Source: a virus
Taxonomy: Duplodnaviria > Heunggongvirae > Uroviricota > Caudoviricetes
Strand: one strand, 5' to 3'
DNA length: 41,286 nt
IMG/VR virus record: IMGVR_UViG_2565956711_000007
Part shown: in pieces, positions 3,051 through 39,155 of the stretch
Position numbering within the stretch: position 1 is the first letter of the stretch
Layout of the letters: each line of letters starts with the position of its first letter
Notes under the pieces: generated by a model
What the model was told of the DNA's origin: nothing
What the model saw: only the letters and a program-made list of their open reading frames with translations
Database searches by the model: none
Made by a program: the position numbers and the translations under genes

Positions 3051-3329
3051 TCATTTTTCCTCTTTTGGTTTATGAATCTGAATGGTCATGCCGCTTTGAG
3101 TGGTGACTACAATGACAGAACCAGGCTGAAGACTGTTAAGATTGAATGCTTCGTAAAACGAATCCAAGGCCAGCGTTTTTTTATTCTTTCGGTTCCACCA
3201 ACGCCATCCCTTGCTACAGGCTACACTGACAATCCACTGCCCACTCCTGTAAGCCATATAAAACCAGATGAGCAAAACCTGAAGGAATGCTATCCAGTCA
3301 ATAATCGTATATTTCGCGAAGGAGTCCAT
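3051..3329 (-). CDS. Hypothetical membrane protein (N-terminal TM helix, beta-rich C-terminus)
   Basis: ATG at 3329 with AGGAGG 7 nt upstream; hydrophobic segment YTIIDWIAFLQVLLIWFYMAY; start overlaps upstream stop (TGATG). Confidence 0.5.
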   Translation of the reverse strand: MDSFAKYTIIDWIAFLQVLLIWFYMAYRSGQWIVSVACSKGWRWWNRKNKKTLALDSFYEAFNLNSLQPGSVIVVTTQSGMTIQIHKPKEEK

Positions 3330-4564
3330 CACTTCACCTCCTGCTGCGGTGCTGCTGGCATTTCACGCCAGTGCGTAACTGAGTGCGGATCCGGATATTC
3401 GGTGCCATCATCCCAGCGATTGCCATTCCACATTGCAGACCACATCTCACCGTCTTCATACATGACCATTACCGGAATTAACTTATCCGGCATTCGCTCA
3501 CTACAGCTTATCCAAGCATCCGGAGTTACCGGAGAATTGCCACCCTGAACAGTAGGCATATCCGGACCTTTGCGAATCGCCCTGGCAAGATCGATTGGGT
3601 CGTCGTACAACCAGTCACCTGTTTGCGGATGATTGGCTTCTGCCAATTGTGCAGCCCACTCCAGGCCGTCTTTGTGTCCTTGCAGATAGTCCAGCGGCAA
3701 CTCATCACGATTACTTACGGGTTCGATTTGTTCGGAATTACCGGACAACTGCATGGTACCTTCATTGGTGAGGGTACCATCTGCACCCTGAAGCATGGCG
3801 GCGCGGCAGGCATACTCAACGCCCTTAACTGCATCTGCGCAGTAGTTATAGCGATTGCATTCCACTAATTTCCGTTTGAGTTTTTCAATTGCCTGCGCGA
3901 CATCAGCCTGTATTACAGGAACTGGCGGAACGGCTGTTTGCTCTCGAACGTCATTAGTCGCTATCGGTTCTGCTGCCAACTGACTGGCATATTTGTTAAT
4001 GGTAACGATAAGCTCTTGCTCAGCCTCATCCAGACAATCACCGATACCTCGCCTGTCACCGTCAAAATCATCGAAATCGGCACGAATCTTGGCAACCTTC
4101 AGGATTGCGGACAACACCTCACTAGGAATTACCGGATAGTTGGTTGACGTTTCCGCGATTTCCCGAAAATTATTGGTTGACGAATTCTTGTTTTCCCGAA
4201 AGTTTCCGGACTGAAGCATGGCGGCGCGGCAGGCGTTCCAGCCTCTCACCTCTGCAATAGCGGCAACAGCATCAACCGTGTACATGCTAAGAGGATTAGG
4301 CATTGGTTTTTCTTCCGGTACTACTGGAACGGGGGGAGCGGCGTAGACCTCAATAATTCCATTATCAATAGGCCATTCTCCATCCTTGAGGTAGTCACTT
4401 GTGCCGTCAACTTGCTGTTCTGCAATGTGGAATGCACCTATTGGTTTTGCTTCGAGCGATGCCAGCGCAATCCGTGCCAGTTCCATTTGTTCACCACGGG
4501 TAAGCCCGTTTTCAAGCGGATTTTTAATGAACAATTCAATACGTTCTTTGGTAATAGTGCTCAT
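3329..4564 (-). CDS. Ea22-like accessory protein with internal duplication and DUF551-like C-terminus
   Basis: 411 aa; two copies of ACRAAMLQ motif encoded by a 24-bp perfect direct repeat (3788-3811 and 4211-4234); C-terminal W-rich region resembles phage DUF551. Confidence 0.55.
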   Translation of the reverse strand: MSTITKERIELFIKNPLENGLTRGEQMELARIALASLEAKPIGAFHIAEQQVDGTSDYLKDGEWPIDNGIIEVYAAPPVPVVPEEKPMPNPLSMYTVDAVAAIAEVRGWNACRAAMLQSGNFRENKNSSTNNFREIAETSTNYPVIPSEVLSAILKVAKIRADFDDFDGDRRGIGDCLDEAEQELIVTINKYASQLAAEPIATNDVREQTAVPPVPVIQADVAQAIEKLKRKLVECNRYNYCADAVKGVEYACRAAMLQGADGTLTNEGTMQLSGNSEQIEPVSNRDELPLDYLQGHKDGLEWAAQLAEANHPQTGDWLYDDPIDLARAIRKGPDMPTVQGGNSPVTPDAWISCSERMPDKLIPVMVMYEDGEMWSAMWNGNRWDDGTEYPDPHSVTHWREMPAAPQQEVK

Positions 4565-8803: not shown

Positions 8804-9772
8804 TTAGTAGGTTATTTTTGTTGCGAATACTTCGCCTTTTACGATGGCTGTTATGATATTTTTAGCAACATCTTCTGATGCGCCAACCTTGATAAGGTCA
8901 GCAAGTATTTTGTTATTTACTTCTTTCCGGTGAGCTTTATCCTTTGCTCTACGCTCTTCTTCTTCCTTGATTCTTTTTTCTTCTGCTATTCTGGCTTGCT
9001 CTTTTGCTTCAGCCTCGCGCCGGATTCGTTCAGCCTCCTCCTGTGCTTTTCTGCGTTCTGCTTCAATTGCTGCCTGCTTTTCTCTTTCAGCTCGTTCTGC
9101 TGCCTCTTTTGCTTCGCGCTGTGCTCGTTGCTCGGCTTCAATGCGTTCACGCTCTGCACGTTCCGCTGCGGCCTTAGCTTCTGCTTCTCGCCTTGCTGCT
9201 GCTTCAATTTCGGCTTTTGCCTTTGCTTCGGCTTCAGCTCTGGCTTTCTCTTCAGCTTCTCTTTTTAAGCGTTCTTCATGCTCTCGCTTTTCCTGCTCCG
9301 CTTTGAGTCTTGCCTCTTCTCTTTGGCGGTCAAATTCGCGATCCATCAAAATCGCTATTTCATGGTCAGACTCAATTTGCTTTGCGAGAGCTTCAGCTGC
9401 TGACTTAGCTTCTTCTTCGGCTTTAATCCGTGCCTGTTCCTCCTCATAATCAGTAAGAGGCTGGCGCGCCTTGGCTTTCAGTTCATCAAGGCGATCACGC
9501 ACTGTCTTGCGGTTAGCATCAATTAGCTTTGGAATTTCCTTCAGTTCAGCAACAAGGTCTTTGCCAAGACCATCGAGATATGTTTTCGTCTGCGCAACTT
9601 TATACGCCAGAGAAGCGATCTCCTTTCTGCCCTTTGCCGTTGTGATATCAGGCACAAAGGACATAACTTCACGTTCAACCTTTTGGAGAATTTCTTCAAT
9701 CTGGTCGGCAGACTGAAATACAGTCATTGCATTTGCTTTTTCAATAACAACTAAATCTGTTACTTCACTCAT
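8804..9772 (-). CDS. Hypothetical protein with long E/R/K/A-rich charged helix (single-alpha-helix or coiled-coil like)
   Basis: 322 aa from ATG 9772 (GGAGG 4 nt upstream); about 150-residue low-complexity EAERAEREKQAA-type segment between structured N- and C-terminal parts. Confidence 0.65.
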   Translation of the reverse strand: MSEVTDLVVIEKANAMTVFQSADQIEEILQKVEREVMSFVPDITTAKGRKEIASLAYKVAQTKTYLDGLGKDLVAELKEIPKLIDANRKTVRDRLDELKAKARQPLTDYEEEQARIKAEEEAKSAAEALAKQIESDHEIAILMDREFDRQREEARLKAEQEKREHEERLKREAEEKARAEAEAKAKAEIEAAARREAEAKAAAERAERERIEAEQRAQREAKEAAERAEREKQAAIEAERRKAQEEAERIRREAEAKEQARIAEEKRIKEEEERRAKDKAHRKEVNNKILADLIKVGASEDVAKNIITAIVKGEVFATKITY

Positions 9773-9784
9773 ATATCCTCCATC

Positions 9785-9811
9785 AAAAAAAATTGCCCTC
9801 ACACTGGAGGG
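9785..9811 (-). terminator. Rho-independent terminator (tL1-like) on leftward operon
   Basis: Stem GCCCTC / GAGGGC, 6-nt loop, followed by 7-U run on minus strand; sits just upstream of the SD of the following gene. Confidence 0.65.
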
Positions 9812-9916
9812 CAAAGAAGATTTCCAATAATCAGAACAAGTCGGCTCCTGTTTAGTTACGAGCGACATTGCTCCGTGTATTCACTCGTTGGAATGAATAC
9901 ACGGTGCTTATTCATA

Positions 9917-11209: not shown

Positions 11210-11593
11210 TTACCTCGCCGTCAGTTGTTTTGATTTCCGGTAGCCTGCCGCGTAAATGGCTACGTTTGGAAGACATACACCAGTTTCTGGTTGCTTATGT
11301 CCAAACTCATTCGCGTACACAATGGCCGCTCGCTCCAGATTGCGTCTGTATTCTTTCTGTTGCCAGATCACGTCCTGTGCCATGAACTTAATTGGCTTAG
11401 CGTCTTCTATGCGCTCAGGCGTTTCGTGAGTACCTTTAGCCTGAATCTGCGCTCTGCTTAGAGTAGGGCGGTGTAATACTTCTGAACTTATTGCTTCTTC
11501 GCGGGCCAGTACGCCGTTAGCTAATGCCTTTGCCTTTAAACGCTCACGACGACGAGAACGTGAATTGCCTTTGAACTGAGTTCTGCGTGTCAT
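11210..11593 (-). CDS. N: Antitermination protein N (P22/phi21-like type)
   Basis: 127 aa; N-terminal arginine-rich motif SRSRRRERLKAKA; AGGAGG 5 nt upstream; preceded by P22-type nutL boxB. Confidence 0.8.
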   Translation of the reverse strand: MTRRTQFKGNSRSRRRERLKAKALANGVLAREEAISSEVLHRPTLSRAQIQAKGTHETPERIEDAKPIKFMAQDVIWQQKEYRRNLERAAIVYANEFGHKQPETGVCLPNVAIYAAGYRKSKQLTAR

Positions 11594-11854
11594 ATAGACC
11601 TCCTGATGAACTTTGGTGGTGTGGTGGCTGGTAGTCTAGCTCCAGCTTGTTGAGTCTCATTCGGAGGGGTATAACCGGCACCCCAGTGATTTTTCCATGC
11701 GACAACGTGCGCGTTATGGCGGCCTTATCGCCCGCGGCTCCCCATCTCGTCCACGCTATTGCTAGCGTTGGGAGCGCTTCACCGCTCAACAGTAGGTAAG
11801 CACTTGCCAGTGACTAGCTGGCTTCACCACACCCCAAAGTTCACTTTGGTTATT

Positions 11855-11869
11855 GCGCTTTGTCAGCGC
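11855..11869 (-). promoter_or_regulatory. nutL boxB hairpin (P22 type)
   Basis: Minus-strand GCGCTGACAAAGCGC, identical to the P22 nutL boxB sequence as I recall it; no canonical boxA found upstream. Confidence 0.7.
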
Positions 11870-11937
11870 CGTAGATTCATATTCGAATCGTTGTATATTC
11901 ACCGCCCTGGTGAGTAATGCGTCCTGCTGATGGCTTA

Positions 11938-12023
11938 AAGATAACTTAGGTTATAGGTGTGGTCAATAACCTAATTTATATTTTATGGTAAATAAGTTAT
12001 AAGTGATGGATAACAAAGGTATT
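11938..12023 (-). promoter_or_regulatory. pL promoter with OL operators
   Basis: Minus strand -35 TTGACC (11961-11966), 17-nt spacer, -10 TATCTT (11938-11943); operator-like ATAAC-N4-GTTAT at 11941-11954, degenerate copies at 11966-11979 and 12010-12023. Confidence 0.55.
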
Positions 12024-12152
12024 TTATTTTTGTAAATGTTGCTGATTGATTGGTGTTTGAGGGCTTGCGTGCGGGGTGAAGGTGTTACCTTTGGCTTGAT
12101 GCTTGTCTATGATGAGGATGGTTGATTGGGTGGTGAACGGCAGGAAAAGAAA

Positions 12153-12178
12153 ACCCGGCGCTGAGGCCGGGTGTTTTT
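12153..12178. terminator. Bidirectional rho-independent terminator ending the cI operon
   Basis: Stem ACCCGGC / GCCGGGT with 6-nt loop, T-runs on both sides; overlaps stop codon of the 98-aa ORF. Confidence 0.7.
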
Positions 12179-12473
12179 AGTCTTTTCTTTTGCTTAGCAT
12201 TTCGTCGATTTCTAAGTCAATACGATATTGATCTATTGCTTTTCTCTCGTTTGGGGTTGGTATTTTATACTGTTCAATTAGATCTGTTGTGTATTTTATT
12301 TCATCTAATGTTATTTTTATATCAGAGAGAATCTCTTTTATATCAATTATATGCTCTTCTTCTTTTGCGCGATTAGAGCTATGTTCAATCATTTGAGATA
12401 GCTTTTTGCTAATGCTTAGCAAAACAAAAAGAATGATGACCAAAACAACAACAAAAACTATCAGAAATTCCAT
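12177..12473 (-). CDS. Hypothetical small membrane protein in the rexAB slot, co-transcribed with cI
   Basis: 98 aa; N-terminal TM helix EFLIVFVVVLVIILFVLLSI then charged helical tail; GGAGGG RBS; 40 nt downstream of cI on same strand; strikingly AT-rich. Confidence 0.7.
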   Translation of the reverse strand: MEFLIVFVVVLVIILFVLLSISKKLSQMIEHSSNRAKEEEHIIDIKEILSDIKITLDEIKYTTDLIEQYKIPTPNERKAIDQYRIDLEIDEMLSKRKD

Positions 12474-12513
12474 TATCCCTCCGCACTTCCGTAAGTCTTC
12501 TTCTGATTATCGG

Positions 12514-13221
12514 TTACCAACTATGAGACGACCAGAATACTCTGCCAATAATCCTTACGGTTTCATGAAATTCATCTCTATCCATTACTTCATCCGGGTA
12601 CTCTTCGCGATTTATTGATCTGATTATCACCGATGTAGGGGTGGCGATTAATGTTTTTACTCGTAACAAATCAGACTGGCAAATAGCGTAGGTTTTACCA
12701 TCTCTGATTGTGGTATCTTGCGTGTTAACACCAACAACATCGCCATCGTGAAGGGTTGGTTCCATGCTTTGCCCTACAACCCTAACTAGCTTGGCTGATC
12801 TTTCAGATACTCCCATCTTTTTCAGATAGTGCTTTCTGAAAACCAAAGAGAACTCCGATGATTCCTCTAGCTCGCAGCTACCGCTTCCAGCTGAAAGCGA
12901 AACGTTAAGAAGAGGCAACGCAACAAACTCGTCATCGTTTCTTTTAATGTCTTCCCATACCACAGCTTTTAAAGATGACTCACGGACATTGGATGGTTCT
13001 TCATGTGCACCATCCCTCATTTCACCAATACCAGAACTAAGCCATTCAGGACGCACTTTTAAAGCATTGGCTAATTCAACCATCTTGCGAGATCCGTTTG
13101 TTTTACCGGACGACATCTTCTGTATGGCTGGCTGAGATATTCCAACCATGTCAGCAAGCTGTGATTGTGATACCCCTGCTGAGCTCATGGCTGCATTTAG
13201 TCTTTCTGCGAATGTTTTCAT
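12514..13221 (-). CDS. cI: CI-type prophage repressor (HTH plus S24 LexA-like autopeptidase domain)
   Basis: 235 aa from ATG 13221 (likely leaderless); HTH QSQLADMVGISQPAIQKM; S24 motif GQSMEPTLHDGDVVGVN; not the lambda cI sequence. Confidence 0.88.
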   Translation of the reverse strand: MKTFAERLNAAMSSAGVSQSQLADMVGISQPAIQKMSSGKTNGSRKMVELANALKVRPEWLSSGIGEMRDGAHEEPSNVRESSLKAVVWEDIKRNDDEFVALPLLNVSLSAGSGSCELEESSEFSLVFRKHYLKKMGVSERSAKLVRVVGQSMEPTLHDGDVVGVNTQDTTIRDGKTYAICQSDLLRVKTLIATPTSVIIRSINREEYPDEVMDRDEFHETVRIIGRVFWSSHSW

Positions 13222-13311
13222 ACCCACAAATCTATAACTACGGTTATCCAAAGTAAAATAACAAAGGTTATTGCTATTTTTTATAACTTGAGTTATCTTT
13301 GGTTATAACTA
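13222..13311. promoter_or_regulatory. OR region: divergent pRM and pR with three operators
   Basis: ATAAC-N4-GTTAT at 13234-13247, 13258-13271, 13283-13296; pR -35 TTGCTA (13271-13276) and -10 TATCTT (13294-13299); pRM -10 TAGATT 7 nt before the cI ATG. Confidence 0.65.
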
Positions 13312-13332
13312 ATGACCACAAGAGGTATGCTC

Positions 13333-13557
13333 ATGAATTTAGTAATTCAACGAGCCTTGAAAATTGTCGGTAGCCAAAAGCGCCTTGCCGACAAGTGTGG
13401 TGTAACGCAGCCAGCAGTACACAAATGGCTGAAAGGCGGGTTGGTCTCTCCAGAGAAAGTTACCGCCATCGTTAACGCCACTGGAGGGCAGATCAAGGCT
13501 TACGAAATTCGCCCCGATTTGCCACACCTGTTTCCAAAACCGAATCAGGCAGCATAA
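13333..13557 (+). CDS. cro: Cro-like repressor (HTH)
   Basis: 74 aa from ATG 13333 with GAGG 8 nt upstream; divergent from cI across the operators. Confidence 0.75.
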   Translation: MNLVIQRALKIVGSQKRLADKCGVTQPAVHKWLKGGLVSPEKVTAIVNATGGQIKAYEIRPDLPHLFPKPNQAA

Positions 13558-25150: not shown

Positions 25151-27316
25151 ATGGCCGACGAAAACAGACTCAATTCCATTCTGTGTAAGTTTGACGCAGA
25201 CTGGATGGCGAGCGATGAAGCCAGAACCGAGGCGACAAATGACCTGTATTTTAGCCGAGTGTCGCAATGGGATGACTGGCTATCAAACTACACCACCCTG
25301 CAATATCGCGGACAATTCGATGTTGTCCGCCCGGTGGTCAGGAAGCTGGTCGCAGAGATGCGCCGGAACCCTATCGACGTTCTCTTCCGACCAAAAGACG
25401 GTGCTAATCCTGATGCAGCCGATGTGTTGATGGGGATGTATCGTACTGATATGCGCCATAACACGGCAAAAATTGCCGTTAACGTTGGCGTTCGTGAGCA
25501 GATAGAGTCCGGCGTTGGTGCATGGCGTCTGGTCACGCAGTACGAAGACAACGATCCAACAAGCAACAATCAGGTAATTCGACGCCTGCCAATTCATGAA
25601 GCCTGCTCACACGTCATATGGGACGCCAACAGCAAGCAGATGGATAAGAGCGACGCTAAGCACTGCACGGTGATTAACGCCTTGTCGCGCAATGGCTGGA
25701 AAGAGTTCGCAGAGGATTACGGTATTGATCCGGACACCTTGCCATCTTTCCAGAATCCGAACGATACATGGCTGTTTCCGTGGGTATCGAATGATGTCGT
25801 CTACGTCGCTGAGTATTACGAGGTCGAAGAGAAGAAAGAGAAAGTCTTCATCTACCGCGACCCGCTGACAGGTGAGCCGGTCAGCTATTACCAGCAGGAT
25901 ATCAAAGACGTCATCGACGACCTGGCTAATCGTGGATTCATTAAGGTAGCAGAGCGCAAGGTGAAGCGTCGGCGTGTGTATAAGTCGATCATCACCTGCA
26001 CGCAGATACTGAAAGACCGCGAGAAGATAGCCGGAGAGCATATTCCAATCGTTCCAGTGTATGGCGAATGGTCATTCGCTGGTGACAAGGAGTGCTACGA
26101 AGGAGTGGTAAGGCTGACGAAAGACGGTCAACGCCTTCGTAACATGATCATGTCGTTCAACGCCGATATTGTTGCTCGTTCACCGAAGAAGAAACCGACC
26201 TTCTTCCCTGAGCAAATCGAAGGCTACGAATACATGTACGGTGGAAATGATGACTATCCGTACTATCTGCAGAACAGGACCGATGAAAACGGTAACGACC
26301 TGCCGATTGGTCCAATCTCCTACATGGAAAACCCTGAAGTGCCGCAAGCCAACGCTTACATGCTTGAGGCTGCCACCAACGCAGTGAAAGAGGTGGCTAG
26401 TCTTGGTGTGGATGCGCAGGCAGCAAACTCTCAGGTCGCTTTCGATACCGTCAATCAACTGAACATGCGGGCAGACCTTGAGACATACGTGTTTCAGGAT
26501 AACCTGGCTACCGCAATGCGACGTGATGGCGAGATTTATGCCTCAATGGTCAACGATATTTATGACGTTCCTCGCCATGTAACGCTGACACTTGAAGATG
26601 GTAGCGAGAAAGACGTTCAACTCTACGCGCAAGTTGTCGATTACCAGTCCGGCAATGTGGTCACACTCAACGACATTCGCGGTCGCTATGAGTGCTATAC
26701 AGACGTTGGGCCATCCTTCCAGAGCATGAAGGAACAGAATCGCGCAGAGATTCAGGAGTTGCTAACCAAGGTTCCGCAAGGTACTCCAGAGTTCCAGATG
26801 CTGATGCTGCAATACTTCACGTTGCTTGACGGTAAAGGCGTCGAGATGATGCGAGAGTACGCGAACAAGCAACTGGTGATGATGGGGCTGAAGAAACCAG
26901 AAACACCTGAAGAGATGGAGATGGTGCAGCAGGCACAACAACAGCCGCAGCAGCCATCAGCAGAGCAAATTCAGGCGCAAGGTATCCTTCTGCAAGGTCA
27001 GGCTGAATTGCTCAAGGCAGAGAACCAACAGGCGCAGATTCAGGTTGAAGCCGCCAAGGTTGAAGCCCAAAACCAACTCAACGCCGCGAAGATTGCAGAA
27101 ATCTTCAACAATATGGACCTCGACAAGCAGGCAGAACTGCGTGAGTACCTCAAGCTCGTAGGTCAATTACAGCAACAGCGCAGCAAAGATGCTCGTGCTA
27201 ACGCTGAGCTGCTTCTTAAAGATGCAGACCAGACTCATTCACAACGCATGGATTTCGCGAATCTTATGCGTCAAGTTCAAATCCCCTCCGGCGGAGTAGC
27301 CGAGACACCTCAATAA
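25151..27316 (+). CDS. Portal protein (P22 gp1-like)
   Basis: 721 aa; strong similarity to recalled P22 portal throughout, including Q-rich C-terminal barrel. Confidence 0.95.
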
Positions 27317-27329
27317 GAGAGAGTTAATC

Positions 27330-28241
27330 ATGGACCAAACCACCGACATTCAGGCTTCTGAAGAATTAACCCTGCCCGGCAATCATGCAGCGGCATCTGC
27401 TGATGGCTTAGTTGTCGATAATGCCAACGACAACGCAGGTCAGGAAGAAGGCTTCGAGATTGTCCTGAAAGACGATGAGAAACCAAAACAAGACCCGGCA
27501 ACTAATGCTGAATTTGCCCGTCGCCGCATCGAACGCAAACGCCAGCGTGAGCTTGAGCAGCAGATGGAAGCGGTTAAGCGTGGAGAGTTGCCGGAGCACC
27601 TGCGGGTGAACCCTGAGTTACCAAAACAACCAGACCCTAACGATTATCTTTCCGAAGATGCACTGGCTAAGTTCGACTATGACCAGAGCCGCGCACTGGC
27701 TGCCTTCCAGCAGGCAAACAGTGAATGGCAGATCAAGGCTATGGACGCACGAAGCCAGGCTGTCGCCGAGCAGGGTCGCAAAACTCAGGAGTTCACCCAG
27801 CAATCAGCGCAATACGTCGAGGCAGCCCGTAAGCACTACGACGCAGCGGAAAAGCTCAATATCCCTGACTATCAGGAGAAAGAGGACGTATTCATGCAAC
27901 TGGTGCCGCCAGCAGTCGGTGCCGACATCATGCGCCTCTTCCCGGAGAAATCCGCCGCTCTCATGTATCACCTTGGTGCTAATCCTGAGAAAACACGCCA
28001 GTTGATGGCGATGGACGGGCAATCCGCGCTGATTGAACTCACTCGACTGTCAGAACGTTTAACTCTCAAGCCTCGAGCCAAGCCTGTTTCAGAAGCCCCG
28101 TTACCTGATGAACCCATTCAGGGACACGCTGTTGCTGCAAATATCTCTGCGATTGAAAAGCAGATGGAAGCGGCAGCAAACAAAGGGGATGTAGAGACGT
28201 ACCGCAAGCTCAAGGCGCAACTGAATAAAGGAATTCGATAA
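27330..28241 (+). CDS. Scaffolding protein (P22 gp8-like)
   Basis: 303 aa; close to recalled P22 gp8. Confidence 0.92.
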
Positions 28242-29536
28242 TGGCATTAAATGAAGGTCAACTGGTCACGTATGCTCTGGATGAAATCATCGAAACCGTC
28301 CAGAACCTGACGCCAATGGCGTCAAAAGTGACAAAATACACCCCTCCGGCAGAATCCATGCAGCGTTCAAGCAACACCGTGTGGATGCCTGTTGAGCAGG
28401 AAGCGCCAACCCAGACTGGCTGGGATTTAACTGGCAACGCAACCGGGATTCTGGAACTCTCCGTGAAATGCAACATGGGCGATCCGGATAACGATTTCTT
28501 CGAGCTTCGTGCAGATGACCTGCGTGATGAGCGTTCTTACCGTCGCCGCATCCAGGCATCCGCCAAAAAACTGGCGAATAACATTGAGTCAGCGATTGCC
28601 AAACAGGCAACTGAAATGGGCTCGCTTGTTGTTCACGATACCCGCGCAATTGGTCCATCTACTGGCCTGTCTGGCTGGGATTTTGTGTCTGATGCAGAGC
28701 GCCTGATGTTCTCCCGTGAGCTAAACCGCGATATGGGCATCAGTTACTTCCTGAACCCTGACGATTACCGCAAAGCAGGCCGCAACCTGGTAGATGGTGA
28801 CATCTTCGGGCGCGTTCCTGAAGAAGCGTATCGCAACGGTACTATTCAGCGTCAGATTGCTGGCTTTGATGAAATTCTTCGCTCACCGAAACTTCCGGCA
28901 GTTACCAAGTCAACCGCTACTGGTGTAACTGTGTCTGGTGCGCAGAAGTTTAAGCCGCAGGCATACACCCTTGATACCGATGGTAACAAAGAGAACGTCG
29001 ACAACCGTGTTGCAACGGTGACCGTATCCTCCACCACCGGATTTAAGCGCGGCGACAAAATCAGCTTCACTGGTGTGAAATTCCTGTCTCAGATGGCGAA
29101 GAACGTGCTGACTGATGATGCGACTTTCTCAATCACCCGTGTGATCGATGGTACTCACATCGAAATCACGCCGAAACCGATTGCACTGGATGACGCGTCA
29201 CTGACAAAAGAAGAGAAGGCTTACGCTAACGTAAACACCTCTCTTGCTGATACCACTCCGGTAAACGTTCTGAACGTGGCAACAACCACCGCTAACGTGT
29301 TCTGGGCTGATGACTCAATCCGACTGCTGTCTCAGCCTATCCCGGTAACCCATGAGCTGTTTGCTGGCATGAAAACGTCTTCCTTCAGCATTCCTGGTAT
29401 TGGTGTTAACGGCATCTTCGCAACGCAGGGTGATATCAACACTCTGTCTGGTAAGTGCCGTATTGCTGTGTGGTATTCAGCATGTGCTGTACGACCAGAG
29501 GCAATTGGTGTTGGTCTGCCTAACCAGACCGCGTGA
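28241..29536 (+). CDS. Major coat protein (P22 gp5-like)
   Basis: 431 aa; MALNEGQ.VT...DEIIET... as in P22 coat. Confidence 0.95.
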
Positions 29537-38191: not shown

Positions 38192-38292
38192 CAAAACAGT
38201 GAAGCCCCAACTGCTGGAACAGTCAGGGCTTCGGTATCAACAAAACTTACGAGGTATTATTGATATGTCAAGCTTAGCAAAGTCAACTGTAA
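38192..38292 (-). ncRNA. Predicted sar-like antisense RNA covering the ant ribosome-binding site
   Basis: Minus-strand -35 TTGACG (38321-38326), 16-nt spacer, extended -10 TGcTATTAG (38299-38307); hairpin 38201-38232 then U-rich tract. Confidence 0.35.
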
Positions 38293-39155
38293 ATTGCACT
38301 AATAGCATCATCATTTCTGACGTCAAGATTCATATGGATTCAGAGGGTCGTTACTCGCTTAATGACCTTCATGTAGCATCTGGAAAGGAGGAAAAACATC
38401 AGCCAGCTTTCTTCATGCGTAGAAATGAAACTATTGAATTGATTAATGAAATTTTTAATTCTGCGGATATGCAGAATAAGAATCCCGTCCTTTCTAAGAA
38501 AGGTAGATATGGTGGAACCTACGTTTGCAAGGAGCTTGTTTACTCCTACGCCATGTGGATTAGCGCAGCCTTTGCGCTGAAGGTTATCCGTGCATATGAC
38601 GCAATGGTTACTACCACACAAGAGAGGAAGGCTATTGGCGGTAAAACTTCAGTAGCTGAACGCACACCGCTACGCGATGCAGTAAACATGCTGGTAGGAA
38701 AGAAAGGACTTCGCTATGACGATGCATACAATATGGTTCATCAGCGTTTTGGTATTGACAGCATTGATGAACTTTCAATTGAACAAATCCCGCTGGCCGT
38801 AGAGTACATCCACAGGGTAGTGCTTGAAGGCGAGTTTATCGGCAAACAAGAGAAGAAAGCAAACGAGCTTTCTGCAAAAGAAGCAAACAGCCTTGTATGG
38901 CTATGGGATTATGCTAACCGTTCACAGGCATTATTCCGCGAACTGTATCCGGCATTAAAACAAATTCAATCGAACTATTCCGGCAGATGCTACGACTACG
39001 GTCATGAATTCTCGTATGTTATCGGAATGGCGAGAGACGTTTTAATAAACCACACACGAGATGTTGATATTAATGAACCAGACGGACCAACGAATCTTTC
39101 CGCATGGATGAGACTTAAGAATAAAGAATTACCTCCTTCAGTACATAACTACTGA
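38265..39155 (+). CDS. ant: Antirepressor Ant-like protein with KilA-N-type N-terminal domain
   Basis: 296 aa from ATG 38265; follows arc as in P22 immI; N-terminal [10 protein letters not shown] motif. Confidence 0.7.

Follow-up and report, generated by a model that had tools for sequence, protein, structure and literature searches.

A gene for a small predicted membrane protein forms an exchangeable cassette in the repressor operon of a P22-like prophage and may contribute to phage exclusion

The 41,286-nucleotide (nt) viral DNA record IMGVR_UViG_2565956711_000007 (IMG/VR; Caudoviricetes), the whole of which is referred to here as the window, is a P22-like E. coli prophage, which encodes an integrase, portal and coat proteins of P22 type, the N-terminal part of a tailspike and an Ant protein with an associated sar RNA. 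Directly downstream of its cI-type repressor gene, on the same minus strand, is an open reading frame (ORF) of 98 amino acids (aa) that is a real protein-coding gene under purifying selection, and that forms an exchangeable cassette inserted in the interval from the stop codon of the repressor to the operon terminator. That this gene has the architecture of an operon passenger we hold with high confidence, and it is reasonably likely, judging from the protein sequence, that the product is a membrane tether bearing a cytoplasmic domain. A role in phage exclusion is put forward tentatively, as a reading whose chance we place somewhat below even. The features on which the argument rests are given below by position, strand and source.

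12177..12473 (-): the 98-aa ORF including its stop codon (ORF list, PHROG 18389 and the ratio of nonsynonymous to synonymous substitution, dN/dS; WP_000394868.1 / UniProt A0A136R0S6)
12474..12513 (-): 40-nt spacer between the cI stop and the ORF, with a GGAGGG Shine-Dalgarno sequence at 12477-12482
12143..12178 (no strand assigned): rho-independent terminator of bidirectional shape, the equivalent of tIMM of the repressor operon (terminator scan, fold energies)
12173..12511 (no strand assigned): exchangeable cassette, spacer plus ORF, with the cI stop and the terminator stem as its limits (pairwise blastn, loci L043, L044 and L001)
12411..12467 (-): codons 3-21, predicted single hydrophobic transmembrane (TM) anchor FLIVFVVVLVIILFVLLSI (Kyte-Doolittle 19-residue maximum 3.67)
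12192..12347 (-): codons 43-94, conserved helix-loop-helix domain (motif EIKYTTDLIExYK(I/L)PTPxERKxIDQYRIDxEIDEM, dN/dS, AlphaFold)

An earlier, sequence-only reading of the window had placed the ORF 40 nt after the cI stop, on the same strand and with a GGAGGG of its own, and this was confirmed at 12177-12473 (-). The ORF starts with ATG, 3 nt downstream of the GGAGGG, and the product has a computed mass of 11.6 kDa. The chance of 98 open codons at this base composition is P = 1.3e-4, and an open run of at least 98 codons in any frame occurred in 28 of 2000 shuffles of the segment. Against the Citrobacter freundii orthologue (locus L003) dS is 0.84 and dN 0.13, giving a dN/dS of 0.15, which divides into 0.06 for the last 56 codons (43-98) and 0.35 for the first 42; a second orthologue (L005) gave 0.13, and dS across orthologues ranges from 0.8 to 2.0. 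Close relatives, 72-99% identical, were found in E. coli and Citrobacter; 39 alignment columns are invariant among them, as are 38 of the 52 residues from position 43 to 94. An exhaustive profile search of 1.8 billion representatives returned 14 clusters, from 67% down to 24% identity to the window protein, which share its architecture and the motif I-K-Y-(T/V)-T-D-x-I-E-x-Y-K-(L/I)-P-x3-E-R-x2-(I/L)-D-x4-D-x-E-I. It might be argued that the ORF is not functional as a protein, and is an accidental frame in an AT-rich spacer, a functional RNA or an H-NS-binding tract; its extreme AT-richness, its 14% of rare codons (8 ATA, 4 CTA, 2 AGA) and its annotation in databases as merely hypothetical would suit such a view. 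It should be weighed, however, against a dN/dS of 0.13-0.15 at a dS of 0.8-2.0, the retention of frame, length and motif in other taxa down to 24% identity, the presence of a Shine-Dalgarno sequence and the lack of any Rfam match in the window besides sar. A non-functional ORF is thus strongly disfavoured, and we regard it as extremely improbable. An antisense or small RNA (sRNA) explanation was also rejected, as there is no Rfam match and the terminator geometry is wrong.

The identical protein is encoded on at least 1000 public contigs, where it is labelled hypothetical or uncharacterised save for one automatic IMG name on a cluster member. Its sole family assignment is PHROG 18389, a family with no annotated function that is matched over the full length (6.4e-62, 206.7 bits, residues 1-98 on profile positions 1-98 of 98) and that says nothing about mechanism. 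Pfam and NCBIfam contained nothing above cut-off, the sub-threshold matches to DUF5385 and MscL arising from TM and coiled-coil composition, a sequence-profile search of the PDB returned just designed coiled coils and compositional matches of that kind, and Foldseek with the AlphaFold model gave 0 hits in the PDB and 0 in BFVD. The sequence-only reading had been unable to place the protein in a named family, and the profile and Foldseek searches agree with it, giving only PHROG 18389 and no described exclusion protein. A literature search found no paper that mentions WP_000394868, A0A136R0S6 or phrog_18389, and the accession is absent from the DefensePredictor supplements.

The ORF appears to depend on the repressor operon for its expression. 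A scan of the spacer (12474-12513) found no terminator-like site between cI and the ORF, as had been claimed from the sequence; the spacer is without stable structure (-12 kcal/mol, z = +0.84 against shuffles), and a promoter scan detected no promoter-like site within it. The bidirectional hairpin that was expected after the ORF is present 4 nt beyond its stop codon, at 12153-12172, and consists of a 7-bp stem with 6 GC pairs and T-runs on both strands, the fold energies being -13.7 (minus strand) and -18.7 kcal/mol (z about -2). From the lack of a terminator or stable structure in the spacer, the single terminator after the ORF and the linkage of the family to unrelated repressors (see below) we infer that the ORF is co-transcribed with cI, that it has neither promoter nor terminator of its own, and that it uses those of the repressor operon. 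Within the last cI codons (12548-12520, minus strand) there is a weak sigma-70-like site, TTGGCA-17-CATAGT (9 of 12); it is placed like lambda pLIT and could add cI-independent transcription of the ORF. Overall, the promoter scan returned 3 sites, which is fewer than the 4.8 in shuffles.

With a GC content of 29.6%, compared with 43.4% for cI, 49.0% for N and 47.7% (SD 4.7) for the window, the ORF is the lowest-GC 297-nt stretch of the whole 41 kb, and the conspicuous AT-richness relative to cI and N that had been remarked upon is therefore genuine. The recent acquisition that had been read into it does not stand. AT-richness is a stable trait of the family, with 30-36% GC in all lineages, which at a dS of 0.8-2.0 argues against recent acquisition; furthermore, the E. 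coli cassette is tied to one cI allele in 98 of 98 complete genomes (those in which a single match runs from the cassette into the adjacent 3' end of cI) and in 31 of 31 IMG/VR contigs. The description of the gene as a moron is apt with respect to its deviant base composition, but not in the sense of Hendrix and Juhala, which calls for an autonomous promoter and terminator; an insertion that borrows both from the repressor operon is not a classical self-contained moron.

The association with repressors is a property of the family. In all the enterobacterial relatives examined, that is, in the loci whose surroundings were readable, the gene lies on the same strand as, and 1-45 nt downstream of, a repressor of the HTH_3 plus Peptidase_S24 type. 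These repressors comprise six alleles in three lineages, with pairwise identities that range from non-significant to 59%. In addition to the window type there is a type found in L005 and L040, 29-38% identical to that of the window, and a lambda-cI type found in L003 and L041, the repressor of L003 being 78% identical to lambda cI. The L042 repressor was placed with the lambda-cI group by BLAST, at about 31% identity, and at the DNA level L042 comes closest to the immunity region of two P22-like Salmonella phages, L and ST64T. Each relative is followed directly by a hairpin terminator with a T-run, which has the same CCGGC...GCCGG sequence in L003, L005, L040 and L042, and the relatives are AT-rich for their locus (30-36% versus 46-49% GC). 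In the Citrobacter prophage L003, with its lambda-like repressor, a member of the family thus stands exactly where lambda has rexA-rexB, which bears out the assignment of the gene to the rexAB slot.

Comparison by blastn with prophages that have the same cI allele and other cargo defines the limits of the cassette. Homology ends at 12172 and returns at 12512, indicating that the exchangeable unit consists of the spacer and the ORF alone; the terminator, which is also present in prophages with other cargo, is part of the shared immunity framework. With this cI allele the Stx1 phage SH2026Stx1 and E. coli strain F8704-2 carry genes for a DUF3024 protein and a 177-aa protein, while another strain has genes for proteins of 120 and 42 aa. 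The DUF3024 protein, of 113 aa, is encoded at 3124-3465 (-) of L044 in strain F8704-2, and the same gene is found at 2624-2965 of L001 in SH2026Stx1. Located behind a near-identical cI, it matches the PADLOC defence candidate PDC-S43 (6.4e-41), and the 177-aa protein that follows it is unannotated. In Salmonella phage L and Hafnia phage Pocitis76 the slot is empty, the terminator coming directly after the repressor stop. The cargo is thus dispensable as well as exchangeable, varying among phages of the same immunity.

The cassette occurs in 98-99 of 5426 complete E. coli genomes (about 2%), always in the chromosome. Carriers include O26:H11 strain 11368, a reference enterohaemorrhagic E. coli (EHEC), strains H19 and RM8426, an O111:H8 strain and O19:H7 strain 730V1, and the sole GenBank phage record that contains it is the Stx1a-converting phage Stx1a_10051. 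The immunity module (11919-13400) is itself mosaic and is found in different backbones. In the O26 strains H19 (L050, 9905-26322) and RM8426 (L007) the cassette-bearing prophage is P22-like and decaying. Several pseudogenes are present in either copy, and in the H19 copy the integrase is interrupted by an internal stop and the nin region by an IS600 element. Despite this decay, cI and the 98-aa gene have been preserved intact, with identical sequences. Two scans of 100,044 GTDB species-representative genomes yielded no confirmed relative, which suggests that the family is sparse.

The protein was described from the sequence alone as an N-terminal TM helix followed by a charged helical tail. 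This is in agreement with the Kyte-Doolittle maximum of 3.67, with the 32 charged residues in the 76-residue tail and with an AlphaFold model that is all-helical (helices 2-38, 45-68 and 74-96; mean predicted local distance difference test (pLDDT) score 82, and 75-93 in the second and third helices); a second model from a deeper alignment merged helices 1 and 2 and differed in nothing else. The motif of codons 43-94 is traceable in relatives at 24-46% identity. The anchor helix, by contrast with the almost invariant domain, is the least conserved part of the protein: it is made up of aliphatic residues only, shows no conserved motif of polar or small residues and retains hydrophobicity alone. 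Lysine or arginine is lacking before the anchor helix in all 17 of the 17 aligned members and occurs one to three times within the 12 residues after it, a distribution that, by the positive-inside rule, points to an N-out/C-in orientation and to a cytoplasmic location of the conserved domain. As substitutions are tolerated in the anchor but hardly in the cytoplasmic domain, the TM helix is probably just a tether, and the helical domain probably binds a conserved partner at the membrane. The pattern fits a tether with a binding domain better than a pore-forming helix, and a conserved partner better than a fast-evolving phage protein. A small membrane toxin of the type I or holin-like kind was rejected on the grounds that conservation is lowest in the TM and highest in the soluble domain, that there is no Rfam hit, and that the plus-strand terminator lies upstream of the antisense strand, with no antisense transcription unit apparent.

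The same pattern bears on the proposal that the protein is a Rex-like abortive-infection effector, in which the domain would sense infection and the TM helices would then assemble into oligomers that depolarise or permeabilise the membrane, so that the infected cell dies. The gene occupies the same slot as rexAB, the protein combines a single-pass helix with a coiled-coil-like helix (the matches to designed coiled coils in the PDB reflecting composition only), and prophage-encoded, membrane-anchored abortive-infection proteins have a reported precedent in Pdp(Sau) of S. aureus (PMC10127798). An aliphatic, motif-free and poorly conserved TM helix, however, suits an anchor better than the lining of a pore, there is no similarity to RexB (E = 22), and the cassette provides no partner sensor gene. 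Such an effector is quite improbable.

In the mechanism that we favour, a cI-ORF98 transcript would be made from PRM in lysogens, and from PRE during the establishment of lysogeny, and would end at the 12153-12172 hairpin. The 98-aa ORF would be translated from its own Shine-Dalgarno sequence, and the product would insert into the inner membrane as an N-out/C-in tether whose cytoplasmic helix-loop-helix binds a conserved partner at the inner membrane face. The protein would act as a lysogen-expressed exclusion factor that shields the lysogen, and hence the prophage, from other phages, its most likely action being to interfere, from the cytoplasmic side, with a host inner-membrane component needed by incoming phages; a rapidly evolving phage-protein sensor or a pore-forming toxin is less likely. 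Taken as a whole, with its exclusion function, this explanation comes only just short of an even chance. The exclusion role is favoured by three circumstantial lines of evidence. First, the slot is a mosaic hotspot of genes transcribed from PRM, including rexAB, bstA, stk of 933W and hex of 434, and these residents, all of which are transcribed with the repressor, are all exclusion or abortive-infection genes (PMC8585504; PMC3564112), as the sequence-only reading had held for this position in other lambdoid prophages. Second, one alternative cargo behind the same cI matches PDC-S43. Third, the gene is intact in the decaying O26 prophage.

Several observations weigh against this proposal. The very strong purifying selection on the cytoplasmic domain is unlike an arms race with phage proteins. 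The protein has no similarity to known exclusion or defence proteins in Pfam, NCBIfam or PADLOC; in PADLOC-DB v2 there was no significant defence match, the best (ZorB/MotB, E = 0.017, 12.6 bits) covering the TM segment only. The weak promoter-like site in the 3' end of cI makes some independent transcription of the ORF possible. Finally, distant relatives that have the same motif at 24-34% identity lie outside prophage repressor operons (L046, 1-1756; L045, 644-1570; L006, 4505-5351): one immediately follows a sigma-54 activator of the response-regulator type, another comes after a SHOCT-domain protein close to an IS200 transposase, and the third is in an unannotated locus of Pelagicoccus (Verrucomicrobia). 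The ancestral role of the family, thus, need not be anti-phage.

These distant relatives are among the points that would favour a lysogenic-conversion factor, in which the tethered domain modulates a host membrane process (candidates being the handling of envelope or proton-motive-force stress, a transporter, a membrane protease or cell division) with a benefit that is independent of phages. A dN/dS of 0.06 in the cytoplasmic domain is what would be expected of a protein that binds a conserved host partner, the chromosomal contexts of the sigma-54 activator, SHOCT and Pelagicoccus loci are not those of prophages, the gene has been kept intact in the decaying O26 prophage, and the slot resident bstA was first linked to virulence phenotypes (PMC8585504). 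The protein, however, shows no similarity to known stress or regulatory small membrane proteins, and a PspB-like regulator was rejected at an hhalign probability of 6.8% over 17 columns. In addition, the characterised residents of the slot that the cited papers name, rexAB, bstA, stk and hex, all have an exclusion or abortive-infection phenotype (PMC8585504; PMC3564112). A function in host physiology is considered unlikely.

The protein could instead act on the switch of its own prophage, stabilising lysogeny or tuning induction, for example by an effect on the RecA-stimulated autocleavage of the repressor or by sequestering a component of the switch at the membrane. Hex of phage 434, at the same position on the PRM transcript, blocks RecA-stimulated autocleavage in addition to excluding heterologous phage (PMC3564112), and members of the 98-aa family lie directly behind S24-type repressors in all the enterobacterial loci examined. 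It should be emphasized, however, that Hex is repressor-specific (PMC3564112), while the repressors partnered by this family are extremely divergent and the cytoplasmic domain is nearly invariant. Distant relatives, moreover, have no repressor nearby, and phages with related repressors function with an empty slot. A modulator of this kind is distinctly improbable as the primary explanation.

Returning to exclusion, a more specific form of the proposal, which we consider doubtful, is that the gene is the first member of a hitherto undescribed family of exclusion proteins, each encoded by a single gene in the repressor operon. A bare tether would keep the nearly invariant cytoplasmic helix-loop-helix (motif IKYTTDxIExYKxPxxxER) at the inner face of the membrane, where it would disable a conserved host component needed for phage DNA entry or early development, possibly with a Hex-like stabilisation of lysogeny. 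Such a family may have been captured from chromosomal small membrane proteins and have spread over heteroimmune prophages of both the lambdoid and the P22-like type in E. coli, Citrobacter and other hosts, including those of EHEC O26 and an Stx1a phage.

The immunity region in which the cassette resides is of the usual lambdoid layout, and its remaining features are as follows.

12514..13221 (-): cI-type repressor, HTH_3 plus Peptidase_S24 (Pfam 7.8e-07 and 1.4e-17; PHROG 4, 4.5e-53)
13234..13306 (no strand assigned): OR, four ATAAC-N4-GTTAT operator-like palindromes between cI and cro, in the PRM/PR region (pattern search)
13312-13557 (+): cro, divergent from the repressor (profile matches)
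11938..12023 (no strand assigned): OL operators at 11941-11954, 11966-11979 and 12010-12023, with a pL-like promoter (pattern search)
11210-11593 (-): N antiterminator, downstream of the pL-like promoter (profile matches)

The pL-like promoter is TTGACC-17-TATCTT at 11966-11938 on the minus strand. The hairpin terminator had been described as lying just before OL/pL; the order is correct but the wording is loose, as 130-190 nt separate it from the nearest operator (12010-12023) and the -35 element at 11966. The DNA between the terminator and the outermost OL operator (12025-12152) is non-coding and has a strong GT skew (plus-strand GC skew about +0.39). In its place an opposite-strand ORF of 65-78 aa is found in Citrobacter L003, in L005, in Salmonella phage L (orf42) and in Hafnia phage Pocitis76, and in L003 this ORF terminates at the same bidirectional hairpin; the window has frames of just 25-29 aa here, and the plus-strand hairpin could still end a short transcript. 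The leader between pL and N (11594-11938) is unusually long (345 nt) and GC-rich (53%). It contains no boxA-like nutL motif at one mismatch or fewer and no Rfam hit, and nutL was not located.

Elsewhere in the window, the P22-like head genes include those of the portal (25151-27316) and coat (28241-29536). The sar RNA (Rfam, 38198-38263, minus strand; 58.4 bits, E = 1.3e-09) is antisense to the start of the Ant anti-repressor gene (38199-39155, plus strand; PHROG 245/2812), which indicates that the prophage has, besides immC, an immI region of P22 type. The pL operon also encodes a 354-aa protein (8804-9868, minus strand; PHROG 1376/21365, of unknown function) whose centre of about 150 residues consists almost entirely of E/A/K/R repeats. 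A 2026 paper credits svsR, an sRNA located within the 3' end of the cI gene of the lambdoid prophage NC-SV, with limiting phage infection (PMC12803456). This sRNA is a different element from the 98-aa cassette; an svsR-like element at the 3' end of cI (12514-12600), if present beside the cassette, could confound a phenotype.

That the slot between cI and N carries cargo will be no surprise to the specialist, and slots with cargo were already known; what is new here is the comparative linkage of one family to six repressor alleles. Each of rexAB, bstA, stk and hex has revealed a different way in which prophages defend their host, and the 98-aa gene is a compact occupant of the same slot with unusually strong comparative support in the form of those six alleles and of purifying selection. 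With 98 aa and one conserved motif it is an easy genetic target, and the repressor linkage, the sharp limits of the cassette, the strong constraint on a cytoplasmic domain of 56 residues and the occurrence in EHEC O26 and an Stx1a phage make it a well-defined and cheap one. If the protein does mediate exclusion, it would bear on how Stx phages and temperate phages of other kinds are disseminated in pathogenic E. coli and on the response of these strains to therapeutic phages; if it has another function, it would provide a counter-example to the assumed defensive nature of cargo in this slot.

By position, the 98-aa gene resembles the accessory genes of PRM operons, and it belongs to none of their protein families. 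With rexA-rexB of lambda it shares the slot from the cI stop to the operon terminator, upstream of OL/pL, a membrane component and a presumed expression from PRM in lysogens. The lambda system, in contrast, comprises a 279-aa cytoplasmic sensor and the 144-aa, multi-spanning RexB, whereas the cassette holds a single ORF, for one 98-aa protein predicted to be single-pass, and not a pair of sensor and membrane effector; the TM helix of this protein, moreover, looks like an anchor and not a channel. No homology to Rex was detected, BLASTP against RexB giving E = 22 and Pfam, PHROG and PADLOC no Rex match. BstA of the Salmonella prophage BTP1 is a much larger, soluble protein, which has no similarity to the 98-aa protein that could be detected as a shared Pfam or PADLOC hit. 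The likeness to BstA is again one of arrangement, as bstA is downstream of the repressor and is followed by its own Rho-independent terminator, with a synteny that is conserved across prophages of diverse Gram-negative bacteria; BstA is found at the sites where phage DNA replicates, and it has a cognate self-immunity element, aba (PMC8585504). The hex gene of phage 434 is likewise the sole accessory gene, placed immediately 3' of the repressor gene in the PRM transcript, and RT-PCR has shown its co-transcription (PMC3564112); here, too, the analogy is one of position. Hex is about 158 aa long, its reading frame overlaps cI at the end of the latter, and the purified form was a soluble fragment with an effect on repressor autocleavage, whereas the 98-aa protein is predicted to be membrane-anchored and is found with unrelated repressors.

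A further analogy, of proposed action, is with P22 SieA, T4 Imm, HK97 gp15 and lactococcal Sie2009, which are small superinfection-exclusion proteins of phages or prophages that act at the inner membrane, some of them encoded beside a repressor. Searches of Pfam, PHROG and PADLOC revealed no sequence or profile similarity to these four proteins. In several of them the functional part is periplasmic or there are several TM helices; members of the 98-aa family, in contrast, are predicted to turn their conserved domain towards the cytoplasm.

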